Shown: in pieces, positions 2,379 to 56,616 of the stretch
How the letters are laid out: every line of letters starts with the position of its first letter
Position numbering within the stretch: position 1 is the first letter of the stretch
Source: Azolla caroliniana
Taxonomy: Eukaryota > Plantae > Polypodiophyta
NCBI GenBank assembly: GCA_043228905.1
Contig: JBHGNT010000003.1
Location: forward strand, 5,332,001 to 5,396,000
Direction of reading: 5' to 3'
Length of the DNA: 64,000 bases
Notes under the pieces: generated by a model
Seen by the model: only the letters and a program-made list of their open reading frames with translations
Databases searched by the model: none
What the model was told of the DNA's origin: nothing
Program-made: the position numbers and the translations under genes

Positions 2379-2400
2379 GGAGGCGGCAGAAGAGCAGAAG

Positions 2401-20677: not shown

Positions 20678-20714
<37 letters not shown>

Positions 20715-27663: not shown

Positions 27664-30600
27664 TTAGCCTAGTGAGAAGGGTTTTTTTCCTTTATAGTGT
27701 GTCTCACATAACCATGCAACTTGAGTTCTCCCGTCCACTTTATAGTTGGTACGTTTGAGAAGGAACTTCTTAGCTATGTTCTCGTCAGTCAATCCTCCAT
27801 TTTCCTCCAATATCGATGCCAAGCACTTTTGCCACTCTTTGGAAGCAGACTTTAATGTACTTAGATATGTATCTTTGTTTGTTTTAATAATATTTTGTAT
27901 CATGGGGTATCCATTCGCTAGTTGTTTGAATTGGGGGGAACAATCAGGGAGCTTGCAACTGGAACCACAGAGGAAATACCGAGTGTAGCAGCTATTATCA
28001 AAACACGAAGGAAACCATTGATATAAGGAAGAGCTGTATTTAGAGTCCTTAATCTAAACTCTAACAAGCAAGTGAGGGTGATGCCAGGTTGGCCTTTCAC
28101 TGGATGTGGCAATCTCTTATGTTCACAATATAAACAGATTGTCACAAAATCCCCTTCCAAAAGTTGAGCCATGAATCTCAAAAGCCTTTGAAGTGTCGAG
28201 TTACCATATTTAAACATAAGGAAGGAAACACGAGGGAGTTGCTTCTCAGCTTCACTATCTAGAGCCATATCCTATTAGAGACATAGTCGAATGTAAGCAT
28301 TAGATAAAGATAGAATATAGATAGATAGATAGATAGAAAGGAGAGAGAGAAAGAAGGGTGCTGATCCACTCGACCACCCCCGAGCAAAGGTGTTGAGACG
28401 GACTCGAGCCTCGATCGGCGTCCCATACCATCACCATGGCGTCGAGTCATACCTAGTGCTGGCACGCTCGCTACAAGAGTTGACCCACCACAAGACAAAG
28501 TCTCGACGTAGTCAACAAGATGATCAAATGAGGGTAGCTAGGCCTCTTATTTATAGCGATACCCAAGGTCCCCAACCATGTTCACACTTGGCCTAATGGG
28601 TTGTCTCAATCCCAAGGATTAAAAGTAATCCTCCCCTTCTTTACACTCTTTTTTAACCCTCATACTTATCCATGTGTATAGAATACTACGGTAAATTCTC
28701 ACCACGGGATATTATATGGTCATGCCCGCAACATATCCAAAAGCTTGCTTACAGATTTCTCAACCTTGCTAATAGCATCTCTCCTCATACATTGAAGTTC
28801 ATTATGTATTTCCTTTAGGTTATTGGTCATTTGATCCACCTTATCATGTAACTCTAGGACCCCTTCATGAGTGGCATCCACCACACGACGTAAACTTAAA
28901 ATTGACATTACCATAAACTTAATAACTTGTACCTCTATTGTATCTTCTGATGTCTGACCTTCTTGCAACAAATGGTTTTCAAGGTTCAACTTGGACGTGA
29001 TCACATTTTCATGATTTTGATATTGCCTAGATACATTGAATTCATCATTCTCCAACAATGCATTCTCCACCTCCACCTCAAACCATTGTTTACATGAGTT
29101 GAAGACCTCCTCATAATACTCCGACCTTAAGAGATCTATAAAAGCACTCGTGAGAGAATGATACATGTCTCTAGTACATTTCCAATCATAAAATTCTTCC
29201 TTGCCTTCCTCAAATTTTTCTCGTAGTTGTTCCTTCAAGTAAGTTATTTTCACACATTGATCTTCTCTTTTTGGTGCGTTTGATGGATCACATAAACAAT
29301 TAGGCCTGATGACACTCTCGATCAACTTAACCCCTTGTATGCCAGTGGGTTGTGCACATATTGTGATCAAGGTGTTGATGATATGCTTCTCCACAAATGC
29401 TAAGGTACTTAGTGTGTTTTCTTTGGTATTACTTTGAGCTCGAACCAACACATCTATCACATAGTTTGATTTTGCTTGGCATATTACGATGATTATCTCT
29501 TTCTTTGGTAAACGTATGGATATGAAATCCTTGCCCAAAGTGACTTGAGCTTCATCATACTCAGATTGGATGACATTGTTAAATAATACTTGAATCCTTG
29601 GAAATAATCCCGGCGTAAGAAATGTGCAGTCACTATTCTCACACTCTAGTCTTCTGCCCATATACACTAAAGTATCTTTATCATCATCCATTGGGGTCCA
29701 ATGGGGTTGTCCCCCAACCTCATCCTTGGACAATATGGCAGGGATAATGATCCACTTTGTCGTTGTATTGGGGACTTTGCAACATAAGTGCATGGCTTCC
29801 ATCAAGTCTACCAGTATTGAGCGGTTTACTTTAGATCTTGTAAAGGATACAAACTTTCGCTCAAGGAGATCCCGAGTGAAGTATCCATTTTCTAATGTGA
29901 CCTTTAGGTGATCCTTTTGAGTTTGGGAAACCAATGAGGTGGCCCATGATCTGATTGCAGAACCAGTTGGGATTGAGAACGATGTGCTTGATTCCGTTTA
30001 TGTAGATGATATTACCAGACTCATTCAAGGATAAGGCGATTATATTTAGTTTAGCTTTCTCATTAGTGGAATTGGAAAGTTGACTATCTGTATTGCAGAT
30101 TTCGCTGAATTTTGTCCATGTGATGATTTGTTCGTCTGTGTTCTTTGAATGATTCTAGAGATGTTTGCTTACCTGTGTGCATATGTCATAGAGCTCAATA
30201 CCTTTGAGCACCTCTTTGGCAATTCTGAAAATACGATCTCCTACAGCTTTGACACAATCCTTGTTTCTTGCATCACTTCAAATGGAGGGTCAACGATATC
30301 AATTAGCCATTCAAATTCTGATCTAAGAGAATCAATGGAAGGTGAGACATTGCTTGAGATAAGATCAATTTGATCTGATCGTGTGAATACCACGATCACT
30401 TTGAGGGCAATGTTGGATTGACGGCTTTTGCAGGCGAGGAACTTGAGCTAGTACCTGAAGCTTGCTTCGAATTCCTCTACTTCTTTCTCTGATCCTTTCT
30501 TGCTAGTTTGGCTCTGGATGGGGCTCCAAACGAACATGAACATGGATGGAACATGATAAGAGCTTGATCCTATGTCTGGGAACATGCAGTCATGGAATGC

Positions 30601-31700
30601 GTGGAACTGTTGTTGGCCTGCCATGTCCCACACAGACACTCGGATTCCATCCTTCTTGATGGCCTGCACCTCGATTCCTTGTGTACGATCTCCTGTAAAC
30701 AGGGCTTTCAGCTTATCTGTCTTGCGGCCATAGATGGAACGCATGGTGCATACAAGGGTAGTCTTTCCTGCAGCAATCAAAATAAGCAAATTATACATTG
30801 CAATGGTTTAGTGTGATTACACCTCATCAATCTAGCCTGCTGACTGATTTTCAATATTTGAGAGTGTTGTCTGTTTTGGTTACCTGCGAATGGATCTCCG
30901 CAGATGAACAATCGCATGGAGGTTGCATTCACTCGCTTCTGATCAGAACTCAACATATAATTGCGCTTGTTCCCTTTTAGTACCCTCTCCCACATAACGT
31001 GATGATGTAACTTTACACTAATTAAAACATTACAATTTTGCTCTCTCTCTCTCTCTCCTCTCTTCTCTCTTTCTTTTCTCTCTTTAATTTCTCTCATACT
31101 CCTCTGTCATATATTTGCTAGAACCATCTAGAGAGAGAGAGAGAGCTCTTTGAGGTTCGGCCAGTGGCGCAGGAAACCAATGATCCTTCTCCAGTCAATG
31201 GATTTTAGATTTAAATGCAGTCTGTGGAGAGAGGCTGCGAGGGGTGAATGTGAATGTGAGGGATGAAGAAGGTCCACTGAAGGGAGAGATGTTTGAGGCG
31301 TTTGTTTTTCTTGAGGGCACTCAGAAGAGCATGAGCATCCCTGAATTTATATGACTCGATGAAGAGGCTGCTGGGTGCCACATCACGATCTGCTGCAAGA
31401 GAGAGAGAGCCTTCACCCAAGCCCCCTCCTCCTCTCCAGTTAGATTATCTTGTAGATTCAAAAGGACCATACGACCATTAATATATCATCCCCTCTTCCA
31501 AGTTTGGTGGTATCGACGAGGAAGAGGTTCTCAACATTGGGAAGATTAATTAAGTCTACATCATGAGTAGACGTTGAGGTTGAGATTGAGATTGAAGAGA
31601 GGTTCAGTAGAGCTGCTCTCGATTTCTCGACAGCTTCTCTCACCTCATCGAATTCCCACTTCGTTGCGATGAACTGGTGAGGGGGTGGGAGGTGCTCCAT
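27664..31700 (-). pseudogene. Second TORNADO1-like Roco copy, pseudogenised
   Basis: Paralog of 17013-21036 with the same intron (30768-30883). Lesions: deletions/replacement in exon 1, TGG>TAG at 30448, frameshifts near 29935 and 27960, solo-LTR insertion at 28273-28733. Confidence 0.9.
28273..28733 (-). mobile_element. Solo LTR (461 bp) in Roco copy B exon 2
   Basis: TSD TATCC on both sides; homologous to 60865-61321; absent from copy A. Confidence 0.9.
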
Positions 31701-31803
31701 GAATAAGAAGAGAAGAGAATGGACGGAAATTAATAAAACTCCTTCTCTCTCTAATGGAAAATGTGTGGACTGAGGTTTCTTCTTCTCTATCTTAATCTAT
31801 TTC

Positions 31804-34800
31804 TGTTAGGGTCACACTCGGATTAAATAGTACATTAGATTAAATAGAAGACAATAATATGATAATATAGGAGTGGAGAAATAAATGACACGAGTATTTA
31901 TGTGGTTCGACTAAATTAGCCTACGTCCACGGAAAGGAGAGTGATTCCACTATAAGAAAAATGTAAGAGAGGGTTTACAACAATTAGAGAAATTATTCTC
32001 TAATTAAACACAATACCCAAGACAATAACCTCACAATTCTCTCTAAAGAATTTTCTCTCTAAAATGGTGTTCCCAACTCTCTAATTCTCTCAAATCTAAC
32101 AAGCCTACAACTCTTGGTGGTCTCTTATCAAATGACTAAGGCTGCCTATATTTATAGCCCTCACTACACTAACTTTTGCATGATAATGATGCATGCATGG
32201 ACCTCTATATATATAGCCCTCACTTTACTAACTTTTGCATGATAATGATGCATGCATGGACCTCTATATATAGCCCTTACTACACTAACTTTTGCATGAA
32301 CCTCTATATATAGCCCTTACTACACTAACTTTTGCATGGACCTTTATATATACTTCATGTAGTTGAGAGACATGGCTTTTCATAAACCACAAAAAATAAT
32401 TCAATTAATTTAACAAATCTCCACCTTGACTTGAATTTCATAGTAGTCTCACTCCACCTTCAAATAACTTAATTATGGGCAACACCAATCAAATTCAAGC
32501 AATGCTTGAACTTGATTCTTGGAAGAGGCTTCGTCAACATGTCTGCGGGATTTTCATGAGTTGAAATCTTTTTCGCTAAGATATCACCCTGCGAAATAAC
32601 ATCACGAACAAAGTCATACTTGATATCGATGTGCTTGGTTCTTTCATGGAACATCTGATCTTTAGTCAAATGAATGGCACTTTGACTATCACATAAAATG
32701 TCGACCTTGTCCGAACAAGAACTGAGCTCCCCAAGTAAGCCTCTTAACCAGATCCCTTCTTTAATCACCTCTGTCATTGCAATGTACTCTACCTTGTCGT
32801 TGATAATGCAACCACGGGCCGCAATGAAGCTTTCCAGCTAACTGCACTTCCACCCAGAGTGAATACATACCTTGTCAGTGATCTTCTATTATGAAGATCA
32901 CCAGCATAGTCAGAGTCAACATAGCCAACTAGAGAACTACTACTCTTGCCAAACTCTAGATAAGCGTCTGAAGTCCCACGCAAATATCTTTGAATCCATT
33001 TCACTGCATTCCAATGTGATTTTCTAGGACAAGCCATATATCTACTGACCACACTCATAGCATGTGAAATACTTGGACACATGCAAACCATAGTATACAT
33101 CATGCTACCAACTGCACTAGAGTAGGGAACTCTTGTCATGTATCTCTTTTCATTATCTGACTTTGGTGATAAAGAAGCTGATAACTTAAAATGCACCGCA
33201 AACGGAATCGATACTGGTTTAGCATTTTTCATACCAAACCTCTCCAAAACTTTCTCAATATAACTCTTCTGAGTTAAATATAGCTTTCCACCTTTACGAT
33301 CTCTTTCGATTTTCATGCCAAGGATCTTTTTTGCTGCACCAAGATTCCTCATTTCGAACACTATGTTCAACTGCTTCTTTAATTCTTCAATATCCGACAT
33401 ATTTTTAGTAGCAATCAACATATCATCAATATAAAGAAGTAAATAAATAAATAAACCATCATGAGTCTTCCTGAAATAGACACAACTGTCATAACTGCTT
33501 CTTGAGTATCCGTTGCCAACCATGAAGGAATCAAATCACTTGTACCACTGTCTCGAAGACTGTTTTAAACCGTATAACGATTTCTTCAACAGGCAAACAT
33601 GATCTTCTTTTCCTTCAACAACAAACCCTTCTGGTTGTTGCATGTAAATGTCTTCTTCAAGTTCACCATGCAAAAATGCAATTTTTACATCAAGCTGTTC
33701 TAACTCCAAATCATGCATAGCAACTAATGCAAGCAAGACACGAATAGAACTATGTTTCATAACAGGTGAGAAAATATCATTAAAATCAACACCTGGTACC
33801 TAAATGTAGCCTTTAGCTACTAACCGTGCCTTGTACCTTGCTTTCCCCACTCCAGGAATTCCTGCCTTTATTTTGAAGATCCATTTACAGCCAACAATCC
33901 TTTGTCTAATTGGTGGCTTCACAAGTACCCAAGTTTCGTTTTTATAAAGAGACTCAATTTCTTCTAGCATAGAAAACAACCACTTGGTGGAATCAACAGA
34001 AGAAACGGCTTCAGAGTAAGAAGTTGGCTTGCCAATCGAATTTGTTTCTTCTCCAACTGATAAAGCATATGCAACAATATCAGCATATCTCTGTGGTGGT
34101 CTGATTTCTCTTCTTGGTTTGTCTCTTGCAATACTTCGTTCTTCCTCAGGAGGTGCTTCTTCTATGACATCAGGCTCCTCTTCTACAGATTCAGGAGCAG
34201 GTGTTTCAGCCATCACTGGTGGACTTGGAACTTCAAGCTCCACCTGCTTTGATGTACTCCCTGTCTTATATATATTAGAAGAAACCACAGGCTCCTTTCT
34301 AGGATTTCGTAGAGCAGATTCATCAAAAGTAACATCTCTACTAATTGCGAATTTAGGTGACTTAGAATTAGGACACCACAACCTATATCCTTTCAACCCA
34401 GAAGCATAACCAAGAAAAATACATTTTCTAGCTTGATGTTCCAATTTTCCTTCACTAACATGCATATAAGCAGGACATCCAAATATTCTCAAATTTGAAT
34501 AATTAGCAGGTTTACCGGACTATACCTCTTCAGGAGTTTTGAATTCAATTGCCGTTGACGGTGAACAATTCACTAGGAAACATGTCGTGGAAACTGCTTC
34601 AGCCCAAAAGTCTTTGGACAACCCAGCATTGGAAAGCATACAACGAGCCCTCTCCAAAAGAGTTCTGTTCATACGCTCAGCTACGCCATTCTGTTGCGGT
34701 GTTTTAACTACTATGTGATGTTTGGAAATTCCTTTAGCCTCGCAAAACTTGTTAAAATCTCCTCCGCAAAATTCCAAACCATTATCAATTCGAAGTCTTC

Positions 34801-37056
34801 TAATCTGCTTTCCCGTCTGCTTCTCGATCATAATTTTCCACTTCTTGAAAGTATCAAACACATCACTTTTGTGTTTAAGAAAATAAACCCAAACTTTTCT
34901 TGAAAAAGCATCAATAAAAGTCAAAAGATATCGAGTTCCTCCTTTCAATGGAACTAGTGTTGGTCCCCACAAATCAGAGTGAATATAATCCAAAGAACCT
35001 CTAGTCTTATGGATTTCAGTGCCAAAGCTGAGTCTCTTTTGCTTTCCGAATACACAGTGCTCACAAAAATCCATCTTTCCTATACTTTGGCCACAAAGTA
35101 GTCCTCGTTTGCTCAACAAGGTTAAACCTTTCTCGCTCATATGCCCGAGCCTCATGTGCCATAACTTCGTAACATCAGAATCTAACATAGACGATGAAGA
35201 AATTGCTACAGAAGCTGTCACTGTCGAGCCATGTAATACGTACAAGCTTCCTACTTTTCTAGCCTTCGTCACAACCAACGCACCTTTGCTAACTTTTAAT
35301 ACTCCACCTTCAGCTGAGAAATTGCACCCGTTGGCATCGAGGGTGCCCAATGAGATGAGATTCTTCTTCAGATCAGGAACATGCCTCACATCAGTCAATG
35401 TTCTGACAATCCCATCAGCCATCCGGATCCGTACTGTTCGTATTCCAATAGTTTTGCAAGGAGCATTATTCCCCATCAAAACTACTCCTCCATCAATAGA
35501 CTCATATGATGAAAACCACTCCTGATTGGGACACATATGATAAGAACAACTAGTATCCATAATCCACTCATCGTTCAACGTGATTGACTTTTCCGTCACA
35601 AGGAGCACATCAACATCACCTCCTACTTCAGCAACAATAGCCTTACCTGCATCCTTATTTCTATCTTGTGGAGTATTCTTTTTTCTATGCAACTTATCAC
35701 AATTCTTGCGCTGCGAACATGCCCTGGTTCCTTATAGTGCCAACACACAACAGATCTACTTCTGGATTTAGATCTAGATTTAGGCCTATCTCTATTGTTC
35801 CCTTTTTGTTTAGATCTACCCCTTACATATAAACCCTGTGCCTGACTATCACTTGTTTGTCCAGTGATATCATGATCAATCTTTTCTTTAGTTTCCAAAG
35901 AAAATTTGACATCTTTTAGAGAAATAGTATTTTTCCCATACAACATAGTTTCTCTAAAATGTCTATATGATTGGGGTAATGAACACAACAACAACAATGC
36001 CTTATCTTCATCATCAATGATAACATCAAGATTTTGCAAATCCATGATAATAGATTCAAATTCATCAATATGAGAACTAAGAGATGTACCTTCACTCATC
36101 CGTAGTGAATACAAGCACTGTTTTTTATAAAGCTTGTTCGTCAGAGTCTTTTTCAGATACAGAGACTCCAATTTTTGTCATAGTGACTTCGCTGTCTCCT
36201 CAGAGATTACCTCCCGCAAAACTTCATTTGCCAAAGACAGTTGAATCGCTGAGCGGGCCTTCTCGTCCATCTCCTCCCACCTAGTGTCCGTCATACCGTC
36301 GGGCTTTACACCTAAAGCCTTCTGAACTCCGTTCTGCACAAGGATAGTGCGCATCCTTACTTGCCAAAGAGAGAAGTTGATTTTTCGATCGAACTTCTTG
36401 ACATCAAATTTTGTCATCGACATCTTGACTAACAAGAAAAATACCAAAACTAATGTACTAACAACCAAGGCTCTGATACCAATTTGTTAGGGTGACACTC
36501 GGATCAAATAGTACATTAGATTAAATAGAAGACAATAATATGATAATATTGGAGCGGAGAAATAAATGACACGAGTATTTATGTGGTTCGGCTAAATTAG
36601 CCTATGTCCACGGAAAGGAGAGTGATTCCACTATAAGAAAAATGTAAGAGAGAGTTTACAACAATTAGAGAAATTGTTCTCTAATTAAACTCAACACCCA
36701 AGAGAATAACCTCATAATTCTCTCTAAAGAATTTTCTCTCTAAAATGGTGTTCCCAACTCTCTAATTCTCTCAAATCTCACAAGCCTACAACTTTTGGTG
36801 GTCTCTTATCAAATGACTAAGGCTGCCTATATTTATAGCCCTCACTTCACTAACTTTTGCATGATAATGATGCATCCATGGACCTCTATATATATAGCCC
36901 TCACTTTACTAACTTTTGCATGATAATGATGCATGCATGGACCTTTATATATAGCCCTTACTACACTAACTTTTGCATGGACCTTTATATATACTTCATG
37001 TAGTTGAGGGACGTGGCTTTTCATAAACCACAAAAAATAATTCAAGTCATTTAACA
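31804..37056 (-). mobile_element. Full-length degenerate Ty1/copia (Tork/Tnt1-like)
   Basis: LTRs 31804-32415 and 36485-37056; TSD ATTTC; PBS TGGTATCAGAGCC (tRNA-iMet) at 36469-36481; PPT GTCAAGGTGGAGATT; order gag-PR-INT-RT-RH. Confidence 0.95.
32469..36423 (-). pseudogene. gag-pol: Copia gag-pol with several stops and frameshifts
   Basis: KFDRKINFSLWQ; [11 protein letters not shown]; LWHMRLGH; [13 protein letters not shown]; QLDVKIAFLHG; LYIDDMLI; YVDSDYAG; ADMLTKPL. Confidence 0.92.
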
Positions 37057-38736
37057 ATTTCCTTTCCTGGTAGTTGTTAATACAAGGGGAAGATTTGTGA
37101 TCGTCTCACCGCTCGAGTTATGTTGGTTGGCATTTCTCAGTGGTCGATATCCTATCATATGTTGGTTGACTATTCGGTCAGAGGTTAATTAAAGTCTCTG
37201 CATTCCTACATCCACATACATACATTTTATGTTGTGAGTAATGGTGATGCCCTATCATATGTGGTAGGGATATGTCTTGTTAGTTCAAGTTTCTCCATCC
37301 TATCCATCTACTATTCCCTGGTAGGGATATGTTTTGTTTTAAACAATATTATGGAGTGGTGTGAATATCATATTTGGTGGTGTTTGATATCCACATTATA
37401 TCATGGGATTTGTTCTAATGATTTATTTGGTGTTTATGAGGTATCACATGATGGCTTGCTCATATTATTGTGGTGTCAATATTCGACTCAATAATATCAT
37501 AGCCACATATCATGACCCTTTTTAGTGTGTATGTAATTCAATATTAAGAAAATAATACAAAACACACCCCCTCACTTTTTGTTGTCTTCCTTCCCTTTGC
37601 TTTTTGGGCACCATTTAGTTGATGGGAGAAAAGTTGTTGCAAATTAACATCCACTTTTCAGTCCTTCCAAGAAAGTAGGATCTTTTAACGCATGAGGTGG
37701 AAGGAAGCATAGTTAAAGTTGATCTCTTCATTAGAGTCTTTGATGAAAGAGAGTTGAAACTATATATTTTAATGGTTCAAATGACAAAACATATTCCATA
37801 TGAGTGAGAGAAAGACGAATTTCATGGATAGATGCACATGCCGTTTGCAATTCCTTTTAGGATCTTCATCTTCTGCCAAATGTCTCGGCATATTATTTGT
37901 CTTTTCAATTTATTGTTGTGTTTCCTATCCCTTGCATGATGTAATTAGAAGATAGAAATATAGAAAGGAAAGCTATAAAACTAGGCCCAATATTAACTAA
38001 CATATATCATTGTATAATTCCAATTACCAATTAACAAATATAAGTTAATGAGGAATGAATGCACGAGGTTAAGGCCCTTTTGGCCTTTGTCGTGAATTTA
38101 CCCATAGGTCTTAAAATAACGTACCCTTTATAATCAACCCCAAAAAGACGAAGGTCAACCCAAGAGTTGTGATAGTTATCCCTTTCTTCAACACCTCCTC
38201 TATTTGCAGTAGTATGCAAGAATGTTCCAAGTGGGTAGCAAAGAGATCCTTTCACTAGTGCATTTGCGAATGCATGCCCATTACATGGAATTCAGAGTTC
38301 TGTTAACTCTTCGGGCCGGACAATGGCCTAACACAGGGTGTCTACGGGAGACACTTCACCAAAGGGTGTTACGGCAACCGGATTAGACTTCAACGCTTAA
38401 TCCGACTTAATTAAGTTACTTATTAGGATCGTCTTTCATAACACACGCGTAAAATATAACAATTAAGACAGAATGGCAATTAACACAAAGAGATAACAAC
38501 GCTTAAGCTTTCATTAATTAACCGCCAACTATTACATTGTATCCGGGCCTTTAAATAGGTTTCCGGTCTGTATTACAAAACGGTGCCATCCGCACCTGTT
38601 CGGGATCGGTCCGGATCCGGAACGGCATACTGTTTCCGGTCCGTTCGTCCACACTCATAGCTTAATTACAACCACATTCCTACTACTTAATTAACTCTCC
38701 GTTTCCCACTCTGGACTCCTTTGTCGGCAGATAACA

Positions 38737-38761
38737 CATGGCACGCCCGTGGTACAGTACC
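38737..38761 (+). promoter_or_regulatory. Inverted tRNA-Arg PBS-like site and hairpin at the position of the PPT
   Basis: CA|ca-TGGCACGCCCGTGGTACAGTACC; conserved at 10443 and 12565. Confidence 0.6.
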
Positions 38762-38790
38762 TTGTACGTCGAATCCACAACCGACCCTTG

Positions 38791-41700
38791 CTATTCTTCG
38801 TCCAAAATATCCAGAATGCTTTGTTCGAGAGGCTCCAATGGTTCATCTGGAAGTGTTTGTTGTTGTTGTTGTTGTTGCTGCTCTGTTGATGTCTGCTGCG
38901 GCGGGTTCGTTGGTGGTTACTACGGCTGCTCCTCCGTTTGTTGCTCTGACACCGGCGTCTCTGTCGTTGCTCCCTGCGTCGTAGTGGTCTCCGGTTGACT
39001 GGTACCCGGCTGGCCCTCAGCCGGCGACAGTCCCTCATCACTAAGGTTAACCGTTGCCGCTTCCCGTGCTTTTTCTTCCCGCACCCGGGACCGCTCGTAG
39101 CTTTCAAACTGGATTTGAGCGTCCAGCCTATCATCGTCTAGCTGAGCTACGAGCTGCCTGACCTGCGCCAGCTGTTCATCTGCCAGGACTTGGAAGTCGT
39201 CGACCAGCTCGTCCCGTATGGCGGTGAAGTCCTCGGAAGTCAACGTATAACAGTCATCTCCTTCCTTCCGCCGGTTTGCCACATCCGCTCGTAGCAACTG
39301 GAGTTCCGCCGCATTTTGTGCCCACTTTGTCCACCATTTTACGGAGCTTTCATCAATCAAGTGTTTTGTCTGATTCAGCCATGCCCGGAGGATGGACTGA
39401 ATCCGGCTCGTTCCCAATTGTGATTTGGTTTCTGCCGCTTGCCGTTCCTCCTTCATTTGTTTGATGATTTTGACGTTGTCCTCCGCCTACGCCTTGTAAT
39501 GCGTCAATTGCCTTTGATATGTGCTTTGTAATTTCTGCAATACTGTTGACGCTCTCTCTTTGTCTTCCTGTTGCTGCCTCTAGAGCTCCATCCGGACCTT
39601 CAACGCCTTGTCCAAGCGTCTTGTATTTTCCGCCCGTTCGTCGGCGATCGCCGTCGCGGCCCGATCAACTGCTTGCTGGAGCTCGGCCATCCGTTCTTTA
39701 TGCTCCGTTTCCAGCCGTTTGTAGTCCCGGTGTAGGTGCTCAAAATCATCCGTCTTTTGCTTGAGCCGTGCGTTGATCTAACGACAGGCCCGGTCCTCAT
39801 GGTCCTTCTGCTGGCGGAGCTCTTCCTTTAGCCGTTCAATCTCTGTTTCCGCCGTTTTCCGCAGCTTGTCCTTTTCCTGCAACACTTTGTCTTTCTCCTC
39901 CTTTAGCCGGTCGTACGCTTGATGGCCTTTCCGGAGGCTCTCCTCTGCCCGGCGGAGGTTCTCAGCAGTCTTCTTTAATTCGGCTTCGGCCGCCGTCTTC
40001 AATTCTCGTTCACAGCTCCTTAGCGTTTCTTGTACGGCAAGTTCATCTCTCAATTCCGCAAGCTCCTGGGCTTGCGCCGCATCTCTCGCCGGGACGGTTT
40101 CCGTTGCCGGGGTCTTCTTGCTATGTACAGGTCGTTCCGTTTCTTTATTCTGTACACTTGCCGGAGTCACCGGTGATTGGATCTGTGTTGCCGTTAAGGC
40201 CATTTTGGCCATCTCTGTCGTGACCTGATCCAAGTCTTTTTCAAGGCACCGGATTCTGGACCGGGCCGTCTCTAGTTGTTCGGTTGTGACGAGCAACAGT
40301 TCGCTTTGCGCTCTTTCTTCCGCCTCAATATACCCCACTGCTCCGGCTATCTGTTCGCCTATCCACCGGAGCCACAGGCTACCGGTGCCTTGTTGTGCTT
40401 GCATGGAGGTTTGACAGATGGGCTCACTTGTAGAGGGGTGGTCCCGCCTGGTTGCACCGAGTTGCAGTTCCGTTTCCGCCCGTGGACCACCCTGCTGCCT
40501 TGGTTCCCCTTGCGTTTCTTCTTGGCTGACCGAGGGAGGCTGCATTGACCTTTCCTGCTCTGGCGGGATGGCACTTGCCGGTGTTGCCGGTGGTGCCGGG
40601 GCTTCTATTTCTGATGCCATATGCACCGGTTCCGGTTCCTTCCTTGGCGTGGGAGTCTCACTAAGGGGAGCCAGTGTTCCCTCCGTCTGAGGGTCCGAAC
40701 GTTTCCCGGCTGTCTCAACGATCCTTGCCGACGACCGTCGCTGGAGGTGCTCCGTGGGCTCCTCCTCTATTTCCTCCTCCTGAGCTCCGGCATTGAGTTT
40801 TGCCGCCAAGGGGTCCGCTTCTCTATTCACCGGTCGGCGGAGTGTGACCTTTATGGGCCGTGCCGGTGGTTCCTCCTGCGCCTCCGTTGGGCACTTCTGG
40901 CTGCCGCTTCTGGCTACCGCCTGTTCTGCATCCGCCACCTTTCCCTTAGTGGCCTTAGAGGCCAACAACTGTTGCCGTTTGGAAGCCGTCCTTGGGGTGC
41001 CGTCTGCCACTCTTCCTCACTTCTTGGGTTGGACGGTCTGGACGGGTGGCACAAGCAAGGTGAGCCACTGCGTTACGACGTGCCATATCCTCCGTCCGTC
41101 TCGGCCTTCTTTGCCATCTTTGCCTCTGACGATCTCGATCGCCGCACACAACCCGTCTGCGATCAATACCGGCCAATCCACCTTGATCCCTTCATAGGTG
41201 GCGATGATCATCCCTGCCCGGTTCTGCGGCATGACAGGGGGTCTAGGGTACACGTTGTTGGGAGACAGGTCCCTCCGGATGGGAAGGGAGAAGAACAGTG
41301 CCGATGAACAGACTCGGCCGAGGCCGAGATCGGATGATGCAGACCCGGTATGAACTTGATGGTGCAAGCCCGGTACGAACCGGATGAGGAGTACCCGGTA
41401 TGAACTGGATGGTGCAGGCCCGGTACGAACCGGATGAGGAGTACCCGGCTACGGAGAGCCGGATGATGCAGACCCGGTATGAACCGGATGAGGAGTACCC
41501 GACTACGGAGAGCCGGATGGTGTAGACCCGGTATGAACCGGAGGAAGAGACATATTCGTAAATATGTTTCTGAGAGCCCATCGTGGCTACATTTGTAAAT
41601 AGCCGAAAAGTCATATTAGTATAAATATGACTTAGGGCAAACTAAGTAGGTGGTTGTTGTTATTCTTCCTTGTTGGTGCAAGAAGAAGTGAGAGCGCGCA

Positions 41701-42556
41701 ACTGTACAGAGAGAGAGAGAGAGAGAGACGAGGTCTTTGCCTCTGTTGTAACCGCCGCTTGTGGCGAAGATCGTGAGCACGAGGTCGTTGCCTCCATGAA
41801 CTCACAGTTTTGTACATTCTTACATAGTGACAGTTTGCAGCCCGTGGGCTGCCGTGGTTTTTCCCCTAGTTTGGGGTTTTCCAGGTAAACCTCCTGTGTA
41901 TTTGTCTTCCTCTTTGTGTCGTGTTCTATTTCCCATTTTCTGTGTATGAAAATAATCTCGGTTGTGGCCGAGCGTTGCGCATAAGGAACGCTGGGTTCTC
42001 GTCACACGTGGCCGTATTCATGGAGCACACGAGCAATTTCGCGGAACAACATATCTCCGCCGCCCTGTGTCCGGTAGCCCTTGCTGGCTAGAGAGTACTC
42101 ACCAAAATACCTAATGAGTTGCTCCGGGGTTGGATTGTCGATCGTGAGTATGCCTCCCTCCGGAAGGCCTGTTAACGCTCGAATCGCCTCTACCGTTATG
42201 ACCTCTGTATCGATTTCTTTGATCACTTTGTCGGCTTCTTCGTGTGGCGGTACTTCCATCATCATCAAGAAGCCCTCGAGCCCGTGTTGCTTTAGCCATG
42301 TCTTGGCGGCTTCCGACAACGTTTGCGGGTCCATGTCTATGTCGAGGTCGGATGGCGGTGGCGAGGTTGGATGGTGATGAGAGTGAGGTTGAGAAAGAGA
42401 GAGTTCAGAAGGTGGGGGTTCTCTGTGCGCAGATTCTCGTCTGATGATCTTGCAGCGTCTTGGTGCTTCTGTGCTCCTGGGTTCGCGAAAGTAGAGGGTC
42501 TCTACGCGCAGTGGTTTTTGTCTGTGCATTCTGGCGCCTTTTTCGAGTGTGTGCAT
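38791..42556 (-). pseudogene. Extra ORF of about 1000 aa (plant-transposon/PMD-like N-terminus, low-complexity linker, coiled coil), broken by a solo LTR and stops
   Basis: Removing 41256-42004 rejoins ...VLHEYGHV-YPRPPVMPQ...; motifs ITVEAIRALTGLPEGG and GIKVDWPVLI; ends SILDILDEE*. Confidence 0.7.
41256..42004 (+). mobile_element. Solo LTR (749 bp) nested in the gypsy extra ORF, with internal tandem repeats
   Basis: TGTTGG...CGTCA termini; TSD CACGT; TATAAATA at about 41620; GTGGTTTTTCCC...GGGTTTTCCA motif; repeats at 41330-41545. Confidence 0.88.
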
Positions 42557-42714
42557 GTCATGTACTAAAATAGCATTATGTCCTGTGGTGGCGCTTTAAA
42601 TGCCCACTACGTACCTTTTCGCTCCTCGCTCTTTCATCCATTCATTCCTCGCTTTTGCATGATTGTTTTTTATTTATTTATTTATTTATAGTTATTATTA
42701 TTATTAGTGTGACG

Positions 42715-45700
42715 TCACTTGTCCGTCGGTCCTCTCGGACCCTTACCGGCCTCATTCTCCCCAGTTACCAGCTCGCCTTCTCTGCCGTCTTTGTGGTTGC
42801 CGTTTCCCTCACTGGTGTCGGTCCTTTGCTCAAATGGGTTCTTAGGCATCGGTCCTCTATATGCCTTCAACCGGAATCCGTTGACCCATTTGCCTAGTAC
42901 TTCGCCGGCAAGTGTCCCTAATTGGTAGGACCCATTATACTCCCGTGTTAGCCAATACGGTCCGGTCCATCTAAACCGTAGTTTACCCGACATCTTGCCC
43001 ATCCGGGTTTGGAATACTAACACCGGTTTGCCGATTGCGAACATTTTTTCGTTACCTTTCCTGTGCCGGTCGACAAATGCTTTCCGTCGCCGTTGCTCCA
43101 ATTCTAAATGTAGGATGCTGGCCAGTCGTTGTTCCTCGAGCTCACACAGCGCTGTCAACCTTATTGCCTCCGACTCCTTCTCGTTCAGCCGTTCCCATAG
43201 CTGGATCCGTAAGCTAGGTACTTGGAATTCTACCGGCATGACCGCCTCTAGTCCGAACGCTAACCGGAATGGTGTTGTTTGGATGCTCGTTTTGTATGCC
43301 GTCCGGTATGCCCAAAGCGCGCTATGTAGCTTTGTGTCCCAATCCGTCCGGTTTTCGTTGATGATCTTCCGGAGGATATTCTGGAGCGTCTTGTTTGTTG
43401 ATTCCGCTAAACCGTTCGCCTGTGGATAGTAAGGTGTGCTCCGTTTGTGGACAACGGCATAGAATGTCGTCAGGCTTTCCACTACTTGGCCTAGAAAGTG
43501 CCCCCCTTGGTCACTTATTAATTCAATTGGGCATCCGTAACGGCACCAGATGTACTCATATAGAAACTTCGCCGTTGACGCAGCGGTGTTATCCCGTAAA
43601 GCTTTGGCCTCCACCCATTTCGTGCAGTAATCCGTAGCAATGATAACGTACCGATTACCCGTTCTTATTGTCGGTGGCTTGAACGGTCCTACAAAGTCCA
43701 GCCCCCACTTTTGGAATGGCTCGAGTGGTAGTACCGGCTGGTGTGGCATACGAGCCTGCTTCGTTGGCTGCCGTACCGTACCGTACCGCATTCTCTGGCA
43801 TAGGTCACATTCTTTTGCGTATCGTACCGCATCTCTTAATGTCGTTGGCCACCATAGGCCACTTTGCCATATTTTTCTGGCTGTCGCATCTCCGGCATAG
43901 TGACCACCGGCAACTCCGCAGTGGGCTTCCCTCAGTATCAGTTCCTTTTCATCGCTGCGCACCGCCCGTCTCCATATGCCGTCTGCGCCCTTGTGGTACA
44001 GTGTGTCTTGCAGTAAACAGAAATGTCGGCTTTGCACCGCCAAGCGTTTCCGTTCGTCCCGGTTCATCTCTTCCGGAGGCAGTCCTGTGCTCAGAAACTA
44101 GTGCATATTTGTGAGCCATTTGTCTTCCTGTGCCACCGTCTCATCTGCTGCCGTCTCCATAGTGACTCGAAACAGCTCTACATCTGGAAACTCATCCGCT
44201 ACTCCGTTACCCGTCTCTCCGGACTCTAATCGGCTTAAGTAATCCGCCACGGCATGCTGTATACCGGGTCGGTGGAATATTTCAAACTCGAACTCCTGTA
44301 ACAGTAAGGTCCACCGGGCCAATTTGCTGGTGAGTGAGGCTTTGGACACCACGTAGAGGAGTGCCGAATGATCTACATGGAAGGAAAACTTCCTTCCCAA
44401 TAAATAATGCCGAAACTTTGTCACACTGTAGATCATCCCTAGGGCTTCCCGTTCCGTAGTAGAGTAGTTCCGTTCTGCTTGGGATAGCTTCCGGCTGGCA
44501 TAGTACACTGGCCGGTGCCACTTTGGTTCCGTAAGCTGCATTAGTACGCTTCCGATTACGATGTCGGAGGCGTCCACGAACACGTGAAACTCTTTACTCC
44601 AATCCGGAGGCTGTACTACCGGTGCATGCGACAATAGTACCTTGAGGGCCTTATACGCCCTATCCTTAGTGTCGGTCCACTGGAATGGTGTCCAATGTAC
44701 GGCGGCATACAATGGTGTAGCCAGGTCGGCCAAGTATCGAAGCATCCGGCTGTGCCACCGGATCTGGCCTAAGAACCGGCTTAATGCCTTTGCCGTTGCC
44801 GGCGCCGGTGCTTCTAATATGGCTTTCACTTTGTCCGGGTCGACTGCAATACCTTCCTGGCTCACAATATGTCCTAATAAAGTTCCACTGGACACGCCAA
44901 ATACACACTTTGCCGGATTCAAGCTTAGCCAGTACGCTCTACACTTTTCTAGACAAAGATGAAGGTGATGAAAATGGTCCTCCTCCCGGCTATAGACGAC
45001 GAAATCGTCAAGGAAAACCTGCATAAAAGCCGGTATATATTCACCAAAGATTTCCATGATGATTCGTTGAAATGTTGCCGGTGCCGTTTTGAGTCCGAAC
45101 ATCATCACCACGGCCACAAAGACCCCCTATTCGGTGACGAATGCCGTTTTCTCTTGGTCGTCGGGGTGCATCCGGATCTGATTATACCCGCTGAATCCGT
45201 CTAGGAAGCTATAGACTTCATGGCCGGTGACGGCATCCAACACTCCATCTGTGAACGGAAGTGGAAACGCATCCGTTATTGTAGCCGCATTGAGTTTCTG
45301 GTAGTCTACGCAAACTCGAATTTTTTTGTTCTTCTTCGGTACGACTACAATCGGGCTCAGCCATGTCGCTTTCTTTACCGGACGGATAAAGCCAACTCTT
45401 AGTAGTTTGTCGATTTCCTCCTTAACTTTGGCGGCATAATTGGGATTCATCCGGTACCGTCTTTGTGCCACTGGTTTTGCGTCCTTGCTCAAGTGCACTT
45501 GATGCTGGTATAACTGAGGGTCGAGTCCTCGCATGTCTTCGTATGACCAGGCGAACACATCACGAAATTCCGTGAGAAGTGTTATCATCGCCGTTTTGTC
45601 TTCGGACTTCATCTCCTTGGCGATGTGCACCGGTTTTGCTTCGTCCGTGGTGCCTAGGTTCACCTCTTCCAGTTGCGACGCTTTCACGCGTTGTGAAACG

Positions 45701-48473
45701 GCCATTTCCCGTTCCAACGCTTCCTGCGCTTGCCGTGACTCCCGGATTGCGTCTTTATCCGGTTCTGCTTCAGCCTCTTCCGGTTGCGGTAAGTATGGTG
45801 CTACTGCTTCGGCAATGCCAATTTCAAAGAGGGGTATGATCTTCGGGTTTTCCTGCAGGTATTGAGCTTCTTCTTCGTTCGCTAACCCTTCTAGCATGTT
45901 GACGCATTCCGCATACAACGGTGTACATTCCTTGCCAGTGCTCGTCCTTGGCTGTGTTGGTACCCGTACCTTGGCTTTTCCTCGCAGGAAGGTAATTATA
46001 TTTTTTCGCCAATTCTGTTTGATATGTGCCATTTTCAACCATGGCCGCCCTAGCAATAGCGGGTATGCGCCTTGTGCCTGTAATTGTAGCACTACGGCCG
46101 AGATGTGAAATGTATGACCGCCGACGGTGACTTCTAATTTCCGTATTAATCCTGTCGGCCGCACTGAGCTTGTATCGGCCATCCGCAACCAGAACGGACA
46201 CGGCTCCCACTCGTGGATTCCTAGGTCATCGCACGTCTGGAGGCTTATTACATTCACCCCAGAGCCTTCGTCTATAACTGTGCCGGGGAGTTCTTTCCCT
46301 TTTACAATGGCAGTGATTACCGGACTGCTGGTGTCCACAACCATTGGTCCCTCCTCCGGATTCGAGAAGAGTACCGGTGCCGGTGATGGTTCTCCTGCCG
46401 TCATGGCCGTCTTCAGTCCTTCCGTGAATCTTGGCACGAGTTGTAGAGTCTTCCTAGTGGTAACGTAATCTGGCATTCTTGCAACGCCTGCCATGTCTCG
46501 TTCTCGGAGTGATTACCGCCGGCAAGCCCTGCGGTGTTCTCCTTTTGCCGCTGTAAGTCTGTGACATTCTGCTCGTTTGCTTTCTTTACCCATTCCGTTG
46601 CTTGTTTCCGGATGGTCTCCTGTGTCTCCCATTCTTTGGCCATGCCCTTCGACCTTGTGGTCACCTGCTGCAGATCTGCCACCTCAGGGACTACCATATT
46701 TACCGCCGGTCGTTTTTCATAGCTCTTCACCAGGCATTGGTTACTATAATGGCCTTCCTGTCGGCAGTAGTAGCAGTAGGCCTTCCGGGTATTGCTAGAT
46801 TCGGCATTGTCTGTTGTACCTGGTGCAGGTCCTGCGGTACGGGCGGGGTTTTGTACCGGTTGGCTGCTTGGAGCTCCTTGTTCCGGATCCCGGGGGTAGC
46901 CGCCTTTTTTAAAATGTCGTTTTTTGTTATAGCTCTTCTTATTACGGTACTCTTGACGGGGTTGCCCGTTATATCTGCCGTATTCCTCCCGTTGCTGACG
47001 ATACCCGGGGGAGTGCTCCTGGTCGTAATGTTCGTATCGTCTATTGTAATCCTGGTACCGATCATGTCGGTCATAGTTATCCCGCCGATCACCGTACCGG
47101 ACTTCATTTTCCCGTCGATCGCCATACCAGACATCCTGTGCCGGTCGGTCACGGTCCATTCGCCGCCAGCGTTCGTCTTCTTCATCCCGGTTGCTGCGTG
47201 GCTCAATTTGTCGGACGGGCGGTGCTTGCCGATTCAACAGATTATACTCGCACCTATCCGTCGTATGGCTCTTGGATTGACAGATTACACATTGCGTCCT
47301 CATAGTGCATTCTAGAGCCGAGTGTCCGGAATTCAAGCAGGTTGTGCACTGTATTGCTTGCCGAAACCGGAGGTCTTCATCGGACGGTAACGCCCGTTGA
47401 AGTGCTCCCAGTGTGAGCCAGGAGCTTGTCTTTTCCATCTCTCTCACCCGGTCAATGACCTGGTCGATGATACTTGTGCGGAAGTCGATTACCGTGCAAA
47501 CCTCCTCCGGGAGCGCGTTTAGGAATATAGTCCGTAATTCCTCCTCCGGGGGTGCGCGGGCAAGCTGACTATGCATCCGTTGAAACCGGATGACAAATTG
47601 GGGAATGCTCTCCCCTGCCTCTTGCCGGATGGTATAAAATAAGCCTACCATTACGGTCTGGTCCACCTCCTTTTGAAAAAAATGCAAGAATTTAGCTTTT
47701 AAATCTGCAAAGGTGTTGATGGTAGACGGGTCCTACGTCCGGCGCCATCTTGCTGCCGGTCCCTCCAATGTGACGCCAAATTCCGCTATCTTAGAGCGTT
47801 CTTCTTCCTCCGGGGTCAATCGCTGGGACACATGGTTGGCTTCCCATGTCTGTTCAAAGGCGTGCACATGAGCTTCCGCGTCCGGATCATCTCTATACTT
47901 GGAGTACTGGAACGACATGTCATCGTCCGGTATTGGTGCGCGGGCTGGCAGTGTTGGTGCTCGTTCCGGAATCTTCTCCGGTGTCGGTGGTCTTTCCCGA
48001 TTTGTTTCCGGCGTCGGTGGTTTTTCCTCTTCCTTTGGTGACGGAGGCCTCTCCTCTTCGACTTCCGGGGGTTCCAGCGTTAGCACTTCCGGTTCCGGTG
48101 TCCGTAAGGTATCCGATCCTTCGTCCTCCGGTCCGCCCGGGGTTTCGTTGCTGCTACGGTAGTTCATGTGCACGTTGTATTCCCCTTCGGAATTCGATTC
48201 ATATGCTGAAAAGGCTTCTGCTTCGCCTTCTCCGTTTGCCAACGCGTGGAGAAGGGATTCGGTTTCCCGGAGGCTGCCTAGGCTGCTGCCGTCGTCCGGG
48301 TGCGATGTTTGCTGTAACCAGAGGGAGTCCTCCGCTACTCTCCGGATTTCGTTGGAAAACGAGCGATCCGCTCTAATTTCCTGCGCCGCTTGCTGGAAAG
48401 CCTCGCGTCTCCTTTGCCTTTCGGCAAGGCGTCGAGTTCGATCTGTAACTAGGTCGTGCGTTGATCTAGACAT
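42715..48473 (-). pseudogene. gag-pol: Gypsy gag-pol (Gag with zinc knuckles, PR, RT, RH, INT) with three stops and one frameshift
   Basis: CYYCRQEGHYSNQC; VIDEGSGVN; FLDGFSGYNQI; FLDD; VDASD; integrase GHY...CDLC, SDQG, NGLAE, WTGPY. Confidence 0.93.
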
Positions 48474-48509
48474 CCATCCGTGCCGTCGTTCGCTGCAAAA
48501 ACAGGAATC

Positions 48510-48519
48510 GTGGTCGCCA
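48510..48519 (-). promoter_or_regulatory. PBS complementary to a tRNA-Arg (probably UCG)
   Basis: TGGCGACCAC, 7 nt downstream of the 5' LTR; matches the recalled tRNA-Arg 3' end GUGGUCGCCA. Confidence 0.7.
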
Positions 48520-51472
48520 AAAACTGTGTTAACTCTTCGGGCCGGACAATGGCCTAACACAGGGTGTCTACGGGAGACACTTCACCAAAGGGTGTTACGG
48601 CAACCGGATTAGACTTCAATGCTTAATCCGACTTAATTAAGTTACTTATTAGGATCGTCTTTCATAACACACGCATAAGATATAACAATTAAGACAGAAC
48701 GGCAATTAACACAGAGAGATAACAACGCTTAAGCTTTCATTAATTAACCGCCAACTATTACATTGTATCCGGGCCTTTAAATAGGTTTCCGGTCTGTATT
48801 ACAAAACGGTGCCATCCGCACCTGTTCGCGATCGGTCCGGATCCGGAACGGCATACCGTTTCCGGTCCGTCCGTCCACACTCATAGCTTAATTACAACCA
48901 CATTCCTACTACTTAATTAACTCTCCGTTTCCCACTCTAGACTCCTTTGTCGGCCGGTAACAAGTTCTAGGGTTCTTGCATCACCAAAATGTTGACACCT
49001 ACATTGAGTAGTTTAGTATTTAAACGCACATTTGGTAGAACTTTAGTTGCATCCACAGAAGCTTTGAAAAGTGGGAGTTTTCATATGGTCAAATAGAAAA
49101 AATAAGCTAAACTAAAAGCTTACTGTTATTTGTATTTGGGTCATCCAAGTTGCCATCCAAGCTATTGCACATATGATTGTTCTAACTAAAAGCAAGTACT
49201 GCTGTTGTTTGGATTTGGTTGATCCAAATATGATTCTTCTGATTGTTCAAGAGTAAGTTTCTTCAAGGCAGATGCCCATATGATTCCCAATCTATTGCAC
49301 AACATATGACTGTTTCACAATAAGATTCTTCAAGAGAGATGCCCATATGATCCGATTGTAATGAATAAGACTTATGACAAAAGAGAAAGAGCATATGTGT
49401 GTGGACTAAATGAACAGAAGAAAAATGTGAAGGAGTGGATAAAAAGTTGAAAAGTGAGTCGAAATCTTTGAAGCATGTAATGGATATCATAACATGCCAT
49501 TTTTAGTGAAAGATAACAAGTTTACTAAGACGCTTTTTTATTTTTTATACATGTACTAAACACTTCTTTTAGTTGAGGGTTACCTTTGTTAAAAAGGAAT
49601 ACTTGAGTGTTTTCTATCCAATTGTTGGTCCCCCATTGGTTAAAAAGGTTTCTCATTTACACTATTTGAATGTCAAACGTCAAAATAATTTCAATATGAA
49701 TGAGACAAGAAGGATTTGAATAATTCGGCATTGTTGTGATTTATGGCTTTGGCATCTTGGTCTTCTCTCAGATTGATGTTTACTCTTATAGCATAAAGTC
49801 TAAAGTTTGGGGCATGTTAATTATCTTTTAAAGTGCAATGCCGCGTTTCCTTTTCCTTCCATGACTTGTGACTGGACTCTAAGAAAATTGGGAAGGTGTT
49901 GGCCACTTTTGCATCGTGTAATAAAGTAGAGGACGCAAATGTGAAACGAAAATGGGCTTGGTTTAAATTTGTAAATTTAGGCCCAATAATGAAATAGATA
50001 GTTCTGTAATTAGGCTCATTATAGATATGCAAATTAATTAAGGAGAATTAATGAAAGTATAGTTATTTTTCGTGGGACTTTGAAGCAAATTGTTTCTCGA
50101 AGTAAAGTATACAAATGTCATCCAGTTTTAGGTTGGTGTGCTTAATTGATTCAGAGCAGTTAACTAACAATAAACTCAAGTGAGTTTAAGGTACAAGACT
50201 CAAGTTCCAGACTTGGTTGAGTCTATGCACATAGTGAAATAATAAGATGCACTCAATCAAGCTTACATATACAAATGAAGTTTAATCACGTTCAAAATTG
50301 GACATTTGAACAACTTTTAGGTTGATCTAGTTTCCGTTCACAATTGAATCCACAAAACCATGATCAAGTTGATATGTTCAGTTTCTCAATATGCTCAAAT
50401 ACGTTTTGGGCTTTGCCAAGTTTCTTGGGTCAAACTATTCCTACACTTGATTTGGGTTTGAACAGCTGAAGGAGATCTCCACTTCTCAACATTAGTGACC
50501 TGGATCAAGTTATAGATGCATTTTAATAATTAACCACCCAATGTTTTTGTAGTTCATGAATTTCTTGTTGGAGTTCGAGCATGTAATGGTTTTCAATGTG
50601 CCTATAGAATACTACTTCTTAATTGGTTGTTCTTGTTTAGATTGCTCGTATCATTATCTAACCTTTTGTTGGTGAGATGAGTGGCATTGAGTGTCAACCA
50701 CTTTGGAAATATAATACTATAAACTAGCTACGAAGCAGATCAAATCTTACTCTAGGAAACGATTGCTTTCACCTGAATTAACTATGACTTAATCACAAAG
50801 AGACTTTATGATGTTTCTATATACACGATAGAAGAATGAAGAGATAATAAATCACTGTCATGATCCAACTTTCATCTTAATCAAGATTAGGTAGTGTAGA
50901 TTATTGTATTCCATCGTAGTTACTTATAAGTGGATTGAAAATATAATGGTCACTATCTTAATAGATGTAGGGTGTGATCTTATATATATATTTAACAACA
51001 AGAAGATTTGTTATTGCCTCGTTTTATGTTTTAAAGATGGTTCAAAATAGCCGTTCGTACAAGCCCATGTGAATGGATCCCATGCTTTTAAGGTATGTTA
51101 AACAGCTAGGTATGGTTTGCTATAGGTACATTGCATAATGTAGGGCATTTGAGCCTACATACCTAACGGAGTGATTCTGTTGAGAATCAAGCTCAAGTTG
51201 GTCTAGTGTGTGAACTCACCTTGAGAGTGAAGAAACACTCCAACGGTCAAGAGTCACCATTATGTCACCACTTTGTATTCTAGCATTTAGTATGAGTCAT
51301 AGAATCATATTCTATGACACATAACTTATGAGCTTTCACATTCCCCATGCTCCATGAGGCTTGTAGTTAATGAAGAGAGAGGGTGTCTACATAAAGCACC
51401 CTCCTCCCACCTTGTATAATGTTGAGTCTTTCTCCTTTGTCAATAGACTTTTACCTTGCGTATTCTCTATGT

Positions 51473-51526
<54 letters not shown>

Positions 51527-51743
51527 CACACACATAACTCACATCTCTTCCACTTCACAAGAATCCATCTCTTGATTCTTTACATGGTATCAGAGCGATT
51601 TGGTAGCTCGATCTAGCCCACTCGCCTCATCGTGATTGTGTGTTGTGCTCCACGCCGACGACCAAGAACTGGCTCATCGCTATCGTAGCTTCGCTACATA
51701 GCACGCATTCGAAGAGAGAAGAAGAAGAAGAAGAATCGACATA

Positions 51744-56567: not shown

Positions 56568-56616
<49 letters not shown>

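Follow-up and report, generated by a model that had tools for sequence, protein, structure and literature searches.

A tRNA-Arg(UCU) site in place of the polypurine tract in a Ty3/gypsy lineage of Azolla caroliniana, and its likely part in plus-strand priming

In the accounts of Ty3 and retroviral replication drawn on here, the plus strand is primed by a polypurine tract (PPT) of the element's own RNA (PMC5371799, PMC13191261, PMC7197481), and the review passages used present this step as general for retrotransposons with long terminal repeats (LTRs) and for retroviruses. How, then, is the plus strand begun in an LTR retrotransposon that has no PPT? This question is raised by a Ty3/gypsy insertion of 10,662 nt on the minus strand at 38301-48962 of a 64,000-nt stretch of Azolla caroliniana DNA (assembly GCA_043228905.1, contig JBHGNT010000003.1, positions 5,332,001 to 5,396,000; hereafter the window). 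It is likely that the Ty3/gypsy lineage to which this element belongs has replaced the PPT by a second, opposite-strand tRNA site, and that host tRNA-Arg(UCU) serves as the plus-strand primer.

The absence of a purine tract before the 3' LTR, which the original prediction had reported, was borne out in the window and across the family. The last 20 nt before this LTR hold 10 purines, the longest purine run being 3, and no purine run longer than 7 occurs within 300 nt before it. Three ordinary LTR elements of the window, each with its primer-binding site (PBS) as well as a G-rich PPT (1570-8862, 31804-37057, and 51178-56616), served as controls and show 13 of 20 purines with G-rich tracts at the LTR, a raw contrast that is modest. 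The conventional PPT required by canonical LTR replication was seen in none of 30 family copies, a sample biased by a query that contained the tRNA site described below, nor in any further member of the clade that was inspected. The 6 purines about 57 nt upstream were considered as a displaced PPT and rejected, being incompatible with the U3 junctions.

In place of a PPT, the plus strand reads the LTR end, then CA, then TGGCACGCCCG, which gives 11 exact bases to host tRNA-Arg(UCU) with its CCA, where the original prediction had called for a match of at least 10 nt to a tRNA-Arg 3' end 2 nt from the LTR. The chance of an 11-base match is roughly 1e-4 (60 tRNA ends x 6 spacers). The host genes matched are L033, L037, L038, L039, and L112, and the host tRNA-Arg(UCU) end reads ...GCCCGGTGGGAC, not the ...GCCCAGTGGGAC of the original prediction. 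The predicted extent also needed correction, as the 11-base match stood while this second primer-binding site (PBS2) runs on to about 38790, with 17 of 18 nt pairing around a one-base bulge, a hairpin at the A58/59 position, and then a complement of the T arm; the window copy carries a private G>T at 38753. All 30 family copies carry PBS2, and 29 of them read GTGGGA. With RNA parameters used as a proxy, the predicted duplex of site and tRNA-Arg(UCU) reaches -58.6 kcal/mol, compared with -36.5 for tRNA-Arg(UCG) and -24.9 +/- 5.1 for the background. The features at this end of the element are as follows.

38301..38736, minus strand: 3' LTR, 436 nt, with 11 differences from the 5' LTR.
38737..38738, minus strand: 2-nt spacer that separates U3 from the tRNA CCA position and reads TG in sense, as in family copies and LTR-LTR joints; presumably the first two plus-strand bases, lost at integration.
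38739..38755, plus strand: PBS2 as it stands on minus-strand DNA, matching the tRNA-Arg(UCU) 3' end exactly over 11 bases and, past a one-base bulge, over six more.
38756..38768, plus strand: hairpin GTAC-CTT-GTAC at the tRNA 58/59 position, covarying across families.
38769..38790, plus strand: complement of the tRNA T-loop, T-stem, and variable region, with one G.T wobble and a 4-nt interruption; the CCC core is conserved and the T-loop part variable.

Evidence that a tRNA has acted at this site comes from replication fossils. Several matches in tRNA searches are not genes; they are CCA-bearing tRNA copies fused to LTR ends, which were counted as authentic when unbulged, hairpin-free, and CCA-bearing. 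An authentic 18-nt tRNA-Arg(UCU) end stands before an LTR end in 50 genome matches, of which 39 were inspected and 11 were not. Most of the fusions that can be oriented lie at U5 ends, in families whose first primer-binding site (PBS1) is also for tRNA-Arg(UCU), as expected for first-strand primers. In 7 of the 50 matches, however, which derive from four independent insertions, authentic tRNA-Arg(UCU) adjoins the start of U3 on the outer side of a 5' LTR with PBS1 after it, whereas the 3' site belonging to the same element is bulged and bears the hairpin. These insertions carry about 57 nt of tRNA at C2:12014866 (one event, locally duplicated), about 47 nt at C2:12742724 (non-autonomous, with A58 read as T), 18 nt at C20:881278 (where a second partial U3 before the copy forms an integrable end, with a target-site duplication (TSD) of 4/5), and 18 nt twice at C16:17527333/17527821. 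Since PBS1 is for tRNA-Arg(UCG) in the first three, their tRNA-Arg(UCU) copy did not come from the first-strand primer. The original proposal that a second host tRNA anneals to minus-strand cDNA and primes the plus strand finds its support in these four insertions.

The C16 insertion is arranged as LTR-spacer-tRNA18-AG-LTR-spacer-tRNA18-AG-LTR-PBS1-gag...LTR within a single perfect TSD, AATAG. The blocks must therefore have formed before integration, during reverse transcription, from tRNA-headed strong-stop molecules. These pieces, LTR-length, headed by tRNA, and ending at PBS1, have the makeup of plus-strand strong-stop DNA. Repeated plus-strand priming similar to the PPT recycling described for Ty3, as far as that account was drawn on, would explain the concatemer. 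Misreading at A58 marks a modified template, and the A58 change recurs in four other fusions with U5-type spacers. The 18-nt copy length matches the stop of reverse transcriptase (RT) at m1A58 after 18 nt, as given in the part of PMC13191261 used here. Two further fusions (C3:8094145 and C11:1420821) fit by LTR-end homology. In addition, two LTR-LTR joints of the window's family (C20:5156347 and C489:21428) keep the 2-nt spacer at the U3 start, standing after an 18-nt tRNA-Arg(UCG) copy or after TGG|CCA, which places the plus-strand start at, or no more than 3 nt from, the CCA joint. The fusions of the four insertions show that a tRNA was covalently attached at the plus-strand start. Separately, 2 of 7 matches in one search and 3 of 21 in another (L128, L140, and L148) were dropped as due to chance or other causes.

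Other fused copies were met in the same searches. Near full-length (73-76 nt) CCA-bearing retrocopies of tRNA-Arg(UCU) are fused to LTR ends at L129, L131, L141, L144, and L145, and two LTR ends at L146 (G000:C597:1-1626) meet in an inverted junction through a read-through copy of tRNA-Arg(UCG). At least one retrocopy (L031) is labeled a tRNA gene by ARAGORN, so tRNA gene counts are inflated here.

The site extends far beyond the window's family. In the genome, 2,256 exact matches to the full motif and 3,025 to the LTR end with a 9-base core are spread over many LTR families, while reversed-pattern controls of both searches gave no match in the genome. Among 92 sites sampled from the core-pattern list, with neither T-stem nor hairpin in the pattern, 90 go on as the bulged form, and three or more of the four hairpin pairs are retained in 88. 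In 264 kb around the window, read by eye, both clade members with paired LTRs have the site, and none of about 15 other LTR pairs does, their ends bearing short purine-rich tracts. Further bulged tRNA-Arg(UCU) sites with hairpins occur on the plus strand at 10439-10490 and 12561-12612 of the window, at LTR ends of other decayed families that share the lineage. A metagenome scan gave at least 123 matches; among the matches listed, 76 of 78 named loci come from one assembly series, and where they match they are mostly 70-90% like loci of this genome. These loci may belong to related plants or to families not sampled so far. Seven of the metagenome sites have PBS1 after them and were excluded, since they probably reflect collapsed assemblies. 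An integrase search of viral contigs found no relative, and 102 pattern matches in unrelated viral contigs were taken as chance and left out of every count; L333 and L347, which have no conserved hairpin layout, were likewise dropped as chance matches.

Conservation was followed with one representative for each of 80 LTR-end clusters (175 sites in all), which gave 77 distinct rows. The hairpin shows double changes at all five pairs, with 88% paired, whereas a single double-change cell is seen in the internal T-stem mimic, whose outer pairs are broken in one third of rows. Identity to the host tRNA is kept across the 80 clusters. Within the first 16 bases, position 10 is the one most often fixed as a change (C>T, fixed or nearly so in six clusters), and one cluster of 3 fixes a change at position 11. 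T10 is a wobble with G67 and also a match to a host isodecoder with A67 (gene L108 and mature retrocopy L131). Decaying A67-type tRNA-Arg(UCU) gene copies are clustered at G000:C4:19.55-19.59 Mb and C22:1.43 Mb (L040-L042, L101, and L113). A strand asymmetry in the T-stem (32 G.T against 1 A.C pairs) was rejected as evidence, since the search pattern had fixed one arm. The site is real, conserved, and far beyond chance, and the element represents a new replication variant with evidence, at the level of sequence, of a host tRNA having primed the plus strand.

The first strand is served by a site of the same build. PBS1 is a 13-nt match to host tRNA-Arg(UCG) lying 7 nt from the 5' LTR. The original prediction had placed an ordinary PBS at 48510; a site is indeed found there, with the tRNA and spacing just given as new detail. 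PBS1 is present in all 30 family copies (a CpG change affects 3), and its architecture is common to PBS2: a tRNA match, a hairpin, and then a T-loop complement, which in PBS1 is CGAAC. Read-through fossils of the first-strand primer are present at U5 ends.

48488..48504, minus strand: hairpin and CGAAC (T-loop complement) after PBS1, a predicted fold built as in PBS2, with the layout recurring in related families.
48507..48519, minus strand: PBS1, 13-nt match to host tRNA-Arg(UCG).
48520..48526, minus strand: 7-nt spacer CAGTTTT between the 5' LTR and PBS1.
48527..48962, minus strand: 5' LTR, 436 nt.

Several relatives vary this arrangement. A related element at about G000:C3 5465381-5475632 (L097-L098), with an RT 74% identical, uses tRNA-Arg(UCU) at both ends, and in families of this type the 18-nt copy of the tRNA occasionally transfers to the 3' site, giving inversions (L435, L441, and L450). 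In 5' LTR loci L426-L429, L437-L440, L448, and L449, a tRNA copy of the full 18 nt has overwritten PBS1; in Ty3, by contrast, inheritance of the PBS from the primer is reported not to occur. The non-autonomous relatives L455, L453, L137, and L433 have a PBS of 10 matching nt followed by a complement of the anticodon arm, which makes for extended tRNA contact of a second kind.

From the observed sites, their conservation, the hairpin covariation, and the tRNA-U3 fusions, a replication cycle may be proposed in which the order of events and the fold are presumed. tRNA-Arg(UCG) would first prime the minus strand at PBS1, as suggested by the match and the U5-end fossils. After the first jump, RT would copy the 3' site and RNase H would strip the RNA, leaving single-stranded PBS2 DNA as in the standard cycle. 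This DNA is predicted to fold into a stem-loop, with the covarying hairpin as its basis, leaving 10-11 bases free for the tRNA acceptor strand and CCA, and T-arm pairing is possible. Extension of the tRNA by RT, across the 2-nt spacer, then the LTR, and finally the 5' spacer, would produce plus-strand strong-stop DNA, a step to which the tRNA-U3 junctions in the genome point. Finally, RNase H would normally detach the plus-strand tRNA exactly at the CCA|TG joint or close to it, the first-strand tRNA being removed as well, and 2 nt would be trimmed by integrase. Where tRNA removal fails, minus-strand synthesis would run on into the tRNA as far as m1A58 or past it, and the fossils would result. 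Since PBS2 is copied from element RNA and never from tRNA, the bulge and hairpin persist, and both are candidates for primer survival against RNase H. tRNA priming of the plus strand would then be the main, regular route. It is probable, though held with somewhat less assurance than the exchange of PPT for tRNA site, that a whole seedless-plant Ty3/gypsy lineage has no PPT and primes both strands in every cycle with two host tRNAs at mirror-image sites, its RT accepting tRNA on a DNA template and sparing it from RNase H until extension. The shared architecture of the mirror-image sites, a short acceptor-strand duplex plus a hairpin replacing the T arm, is part of this reading and is judged jointly with it.

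Several observations weigh against host tRNA as the regular primer. The fossils are few and come from failed cycles, and what they demonstrate is the occurrence of tRNA priming, not its predominance. At one of the 92 sampled sites, L470 (C1:9805988), a 5' LTR is preceded by only about 33 nt of element-type sequence, and at a rate of 1 in 92 such remnants could outnumber the tRNA fossils; a second candidate remnant, L553, was rejected as a tandem relic because it has at least 225 nt of internal homology. The RNase H, which retains its D-E-D-D residues, looks catalytically intact, so survival of a tRNA:DNA hybrid until extension needs explaining. The T-loop complement is freely variable (50-60 of 80 per column), and position 10 is also a CpG site. 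The covariation rows are related and mostly pattern-selected, with the first 16 bases largely fixed by the patterns. A 2-nt spacer was rejected as a marker of orientation, and four fusions with such a spacer are unoriented; a non-autonomous family may be the source of C3:22147009, C10:12358709, and C16:10614961, as first-strand junctions, and C9:12739702 is an unoriented 2-nt-spacer fusion.

One alternative, also raised in the original prediction, is that a CCA-ended piece of the element's own RNA is the usual primer. RNase H would cut the tRNA-like segment at the CCA|UG joint, the hairpin would protect the piece, and host tRNA would act only occasionally or in repeat rounds. L470 is what an RNA-remnant primer would leave, although it combines LTRs of different families in one chimera and may instead have arisen by template-switch deletion. 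The C489:21428 joint keeps only CCA and is compatible with either source; the sense RNA is predicted to fold (-18.1 kcal/mol), and wobble counts in the hairpin favor neither strand (8 vs 9). However, a G53>A change in the window family breaks a T-stem pair of the RNA, yet is a G.T wobble against the tRNA, and both the authentic tRNA at the U3 start in at least four insertions and the preserved host-tRNA identity in the 80 clusters argue against the element's own RNA, which is an unlikely usual primer and stands as a minor rival with one candidate case.

A very unlikely account makes PBS2 an ordinary first-strand site of a full-length antisense RNA, so that replication could proceed from either strand and the fusions would be first-strand read-through. 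It would accommodate the single architecture of PBS1 and PBS2 and the TATA-like word readable on both LTR strands, and a single tRNA fusion outside the 5' LTR looks alike under sense and antisense models, between which sequence polarity beyond the tRNA copies does not discriminate. With no PPT on either strand, though, synthesis of the second strand would depend on the other tRNA site all the same; the open reading frames (ORFs) with homology are confined to one strand, and the tRNA-headed pieces at C16 are exactly LTR plus spacer long, a length that comes naturally only to plus-strand strong-stop DNA in the sense cycle. Least probable of all is a segment with no priming role, be it a relic of tRNA capture, an aid to packaging or RNA circularization, or a Pol III box. 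RT does capture tRNA here and the segment could be a fixed read-through product, and the LTRs of Helenus have tRNA-derived promoter boxes in the portion of PMC10886601 drawn on. Yet the B-box position is split by the hairpin and variable, pairing with PBS1 spans only 4 nt in the window family, and primer geometry is kept at the U3 start, where no PPT is left for the job and authentic tRNA is attached. Priming of the plus strand by host tRNA-Arg(UCU) is therefore preferred.

As a genomic insertion, the element is complete as originally described, with direct LTRs (TG...CA ends), the 5-bp TSD AGTTC, and gag-pol on the minus strand, on the evidence of LTR comparison, an empty paralogous site near 22408, and Pfam matches for gag, RT, RNase H (RH), and integrase (INT). 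The domain order is Gag-PR-RT-RH-INT, the protease (PR) being a motif seen in translation, not a Pfam match. Several in-frame stops make the window copy defective. The remaining features are listed below.

38296..38300, plus strand: TSD AGTTC, left copy, in agreement with the empty paralogous site.
38793..42595, minus strand: extra sense ORF region after pol, coiled-coil-like and stop-broken, with no Pfam match; it ends just short of the tRNA-like segment.
42715..46512, minus strand: pol, with protease motif, RT, RNase H, and integrase and two in-frame stops.
46413..48524, minus strand: gag, with Retrotrans_gag and a zinc knuckle and one in-frame stop.
48963..48967, plus strand: TSD AGTTC, right copy.

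The direct TG...CA LTRs with a TSD, the domain order, and the tRNA PBS after the 5' LTR are those of Ty3/gypsy. The closest named relatives of the element come from a fern, liverworts, a lycophyte, and conifers, while its RT is about 33% identical to the more distant gypsy elements in the neighborhood. An RT-RH tree of 62 rows, which holds no labeled REXdb reference, shows the lineage as a 100/100 clade among fern, liverwort, and other relatives, apart from the aRH-bearing proteins (a separate 100/100 clade) and from an aRH-less clade of Pyrus and conifers. No chromodomain match was found in the Pfam search, which sets the element apart from chromoviruses. Nor was an aRH match found, which, with the tree, excludes it from OTA/Tat (TatI-III, Ogre, Retand) and leaves the Tat/Ogre link implied originally unsupported.

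According to the sections of PMC6317226 relied on here, Athila, Tat/Ogre/Retand, Phygy, and Selgy between them share with the element the domain order, the lack of a chromodomain, a length of about 10.7 kb, an extra ORF after pol, and a 5-bp TSD; the tRNA-Arg PBS recurs in Ogre and TatIII, and aRH, lacking in the element, marks Tat. Among OTA/Athila traits the element has no aRH, a 5-bp TSD, and an extra ORF after pol, whereas the main Athila PBS types are Asp, Asn, or Ala and its own is Arg (PMC6317226). Phygy (PBS Trp) and Selgy (PBS Ala) have 4-bp TSDs and differ from it in both respects (PMC6317226), and whereas in them the coding region takes up the internal part, the element has 4 kb after pol. 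The same sections give three kinds of primer for these plant lineages, all for the first strand. Tandem 752-nt repeats at G000:C1:9811883-9815500 (L522) represent the gag start of a lineage member, are 99.9% identical, and are either a real array or an assembly artifact.

Known systems resemble this one in part. As described in the portions used, Ty3 and retroviruses have in common with the element a tRNA-primed minus strand, strong-stop DNAs, two jumps, a 2-nt terminal extension, and the m1A58 stop after 18 nt (PMC5371799, PMC13191261, PMC7197481). They differ in starting the plus strand from an RNase H-resistant PPT, where the element has no PPT and host tRNA at the plus-strand start, and the bipartite PBS of Ty3 is tRNA-complementary on the RNA, in contrast to the tRNA-identical PBS2. 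Helenus and the other TRIMp3 elements, which are non-autonomous, are likewise LTR elements with tRNA-derived sequence, which in the part of PMC10886601 drawn on lies inside the LTR, is likely a Pol III promoter, accompanies a retained PBS and PPT, and is denied a priming role by the author. The element's tRNA site lies outside the LTR, in the PPT's place, in autonomous elements with gag-pol. No description of a tRNA-primed plus strand was found in the literature searched, which left out subscription journals and Repbase entries, in keeping with the novelty first suggested.

If the proposed priming is correct, a successful lineage, with thousands of sites in one genome, is an exception to a core replication step. 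A tRNA on DNA should be an RNase H substrate, so the lineage makes the choice of RT/RNase H between extending and destroying a primer testable. By the same token, 3' tRNA fragments could block both strands, and PPT-based annotation would misjudge elements of the lineage. The fossils also allow primer identity and tRNA modification stops to be mapped from genome sequence alone. Elsewhere in the window, a gene-like segment is duplicated at 16949-21096 and 27600-31739 (84-92% identical), with a 911-aa ORF at 17013-19748 on the minus strand.
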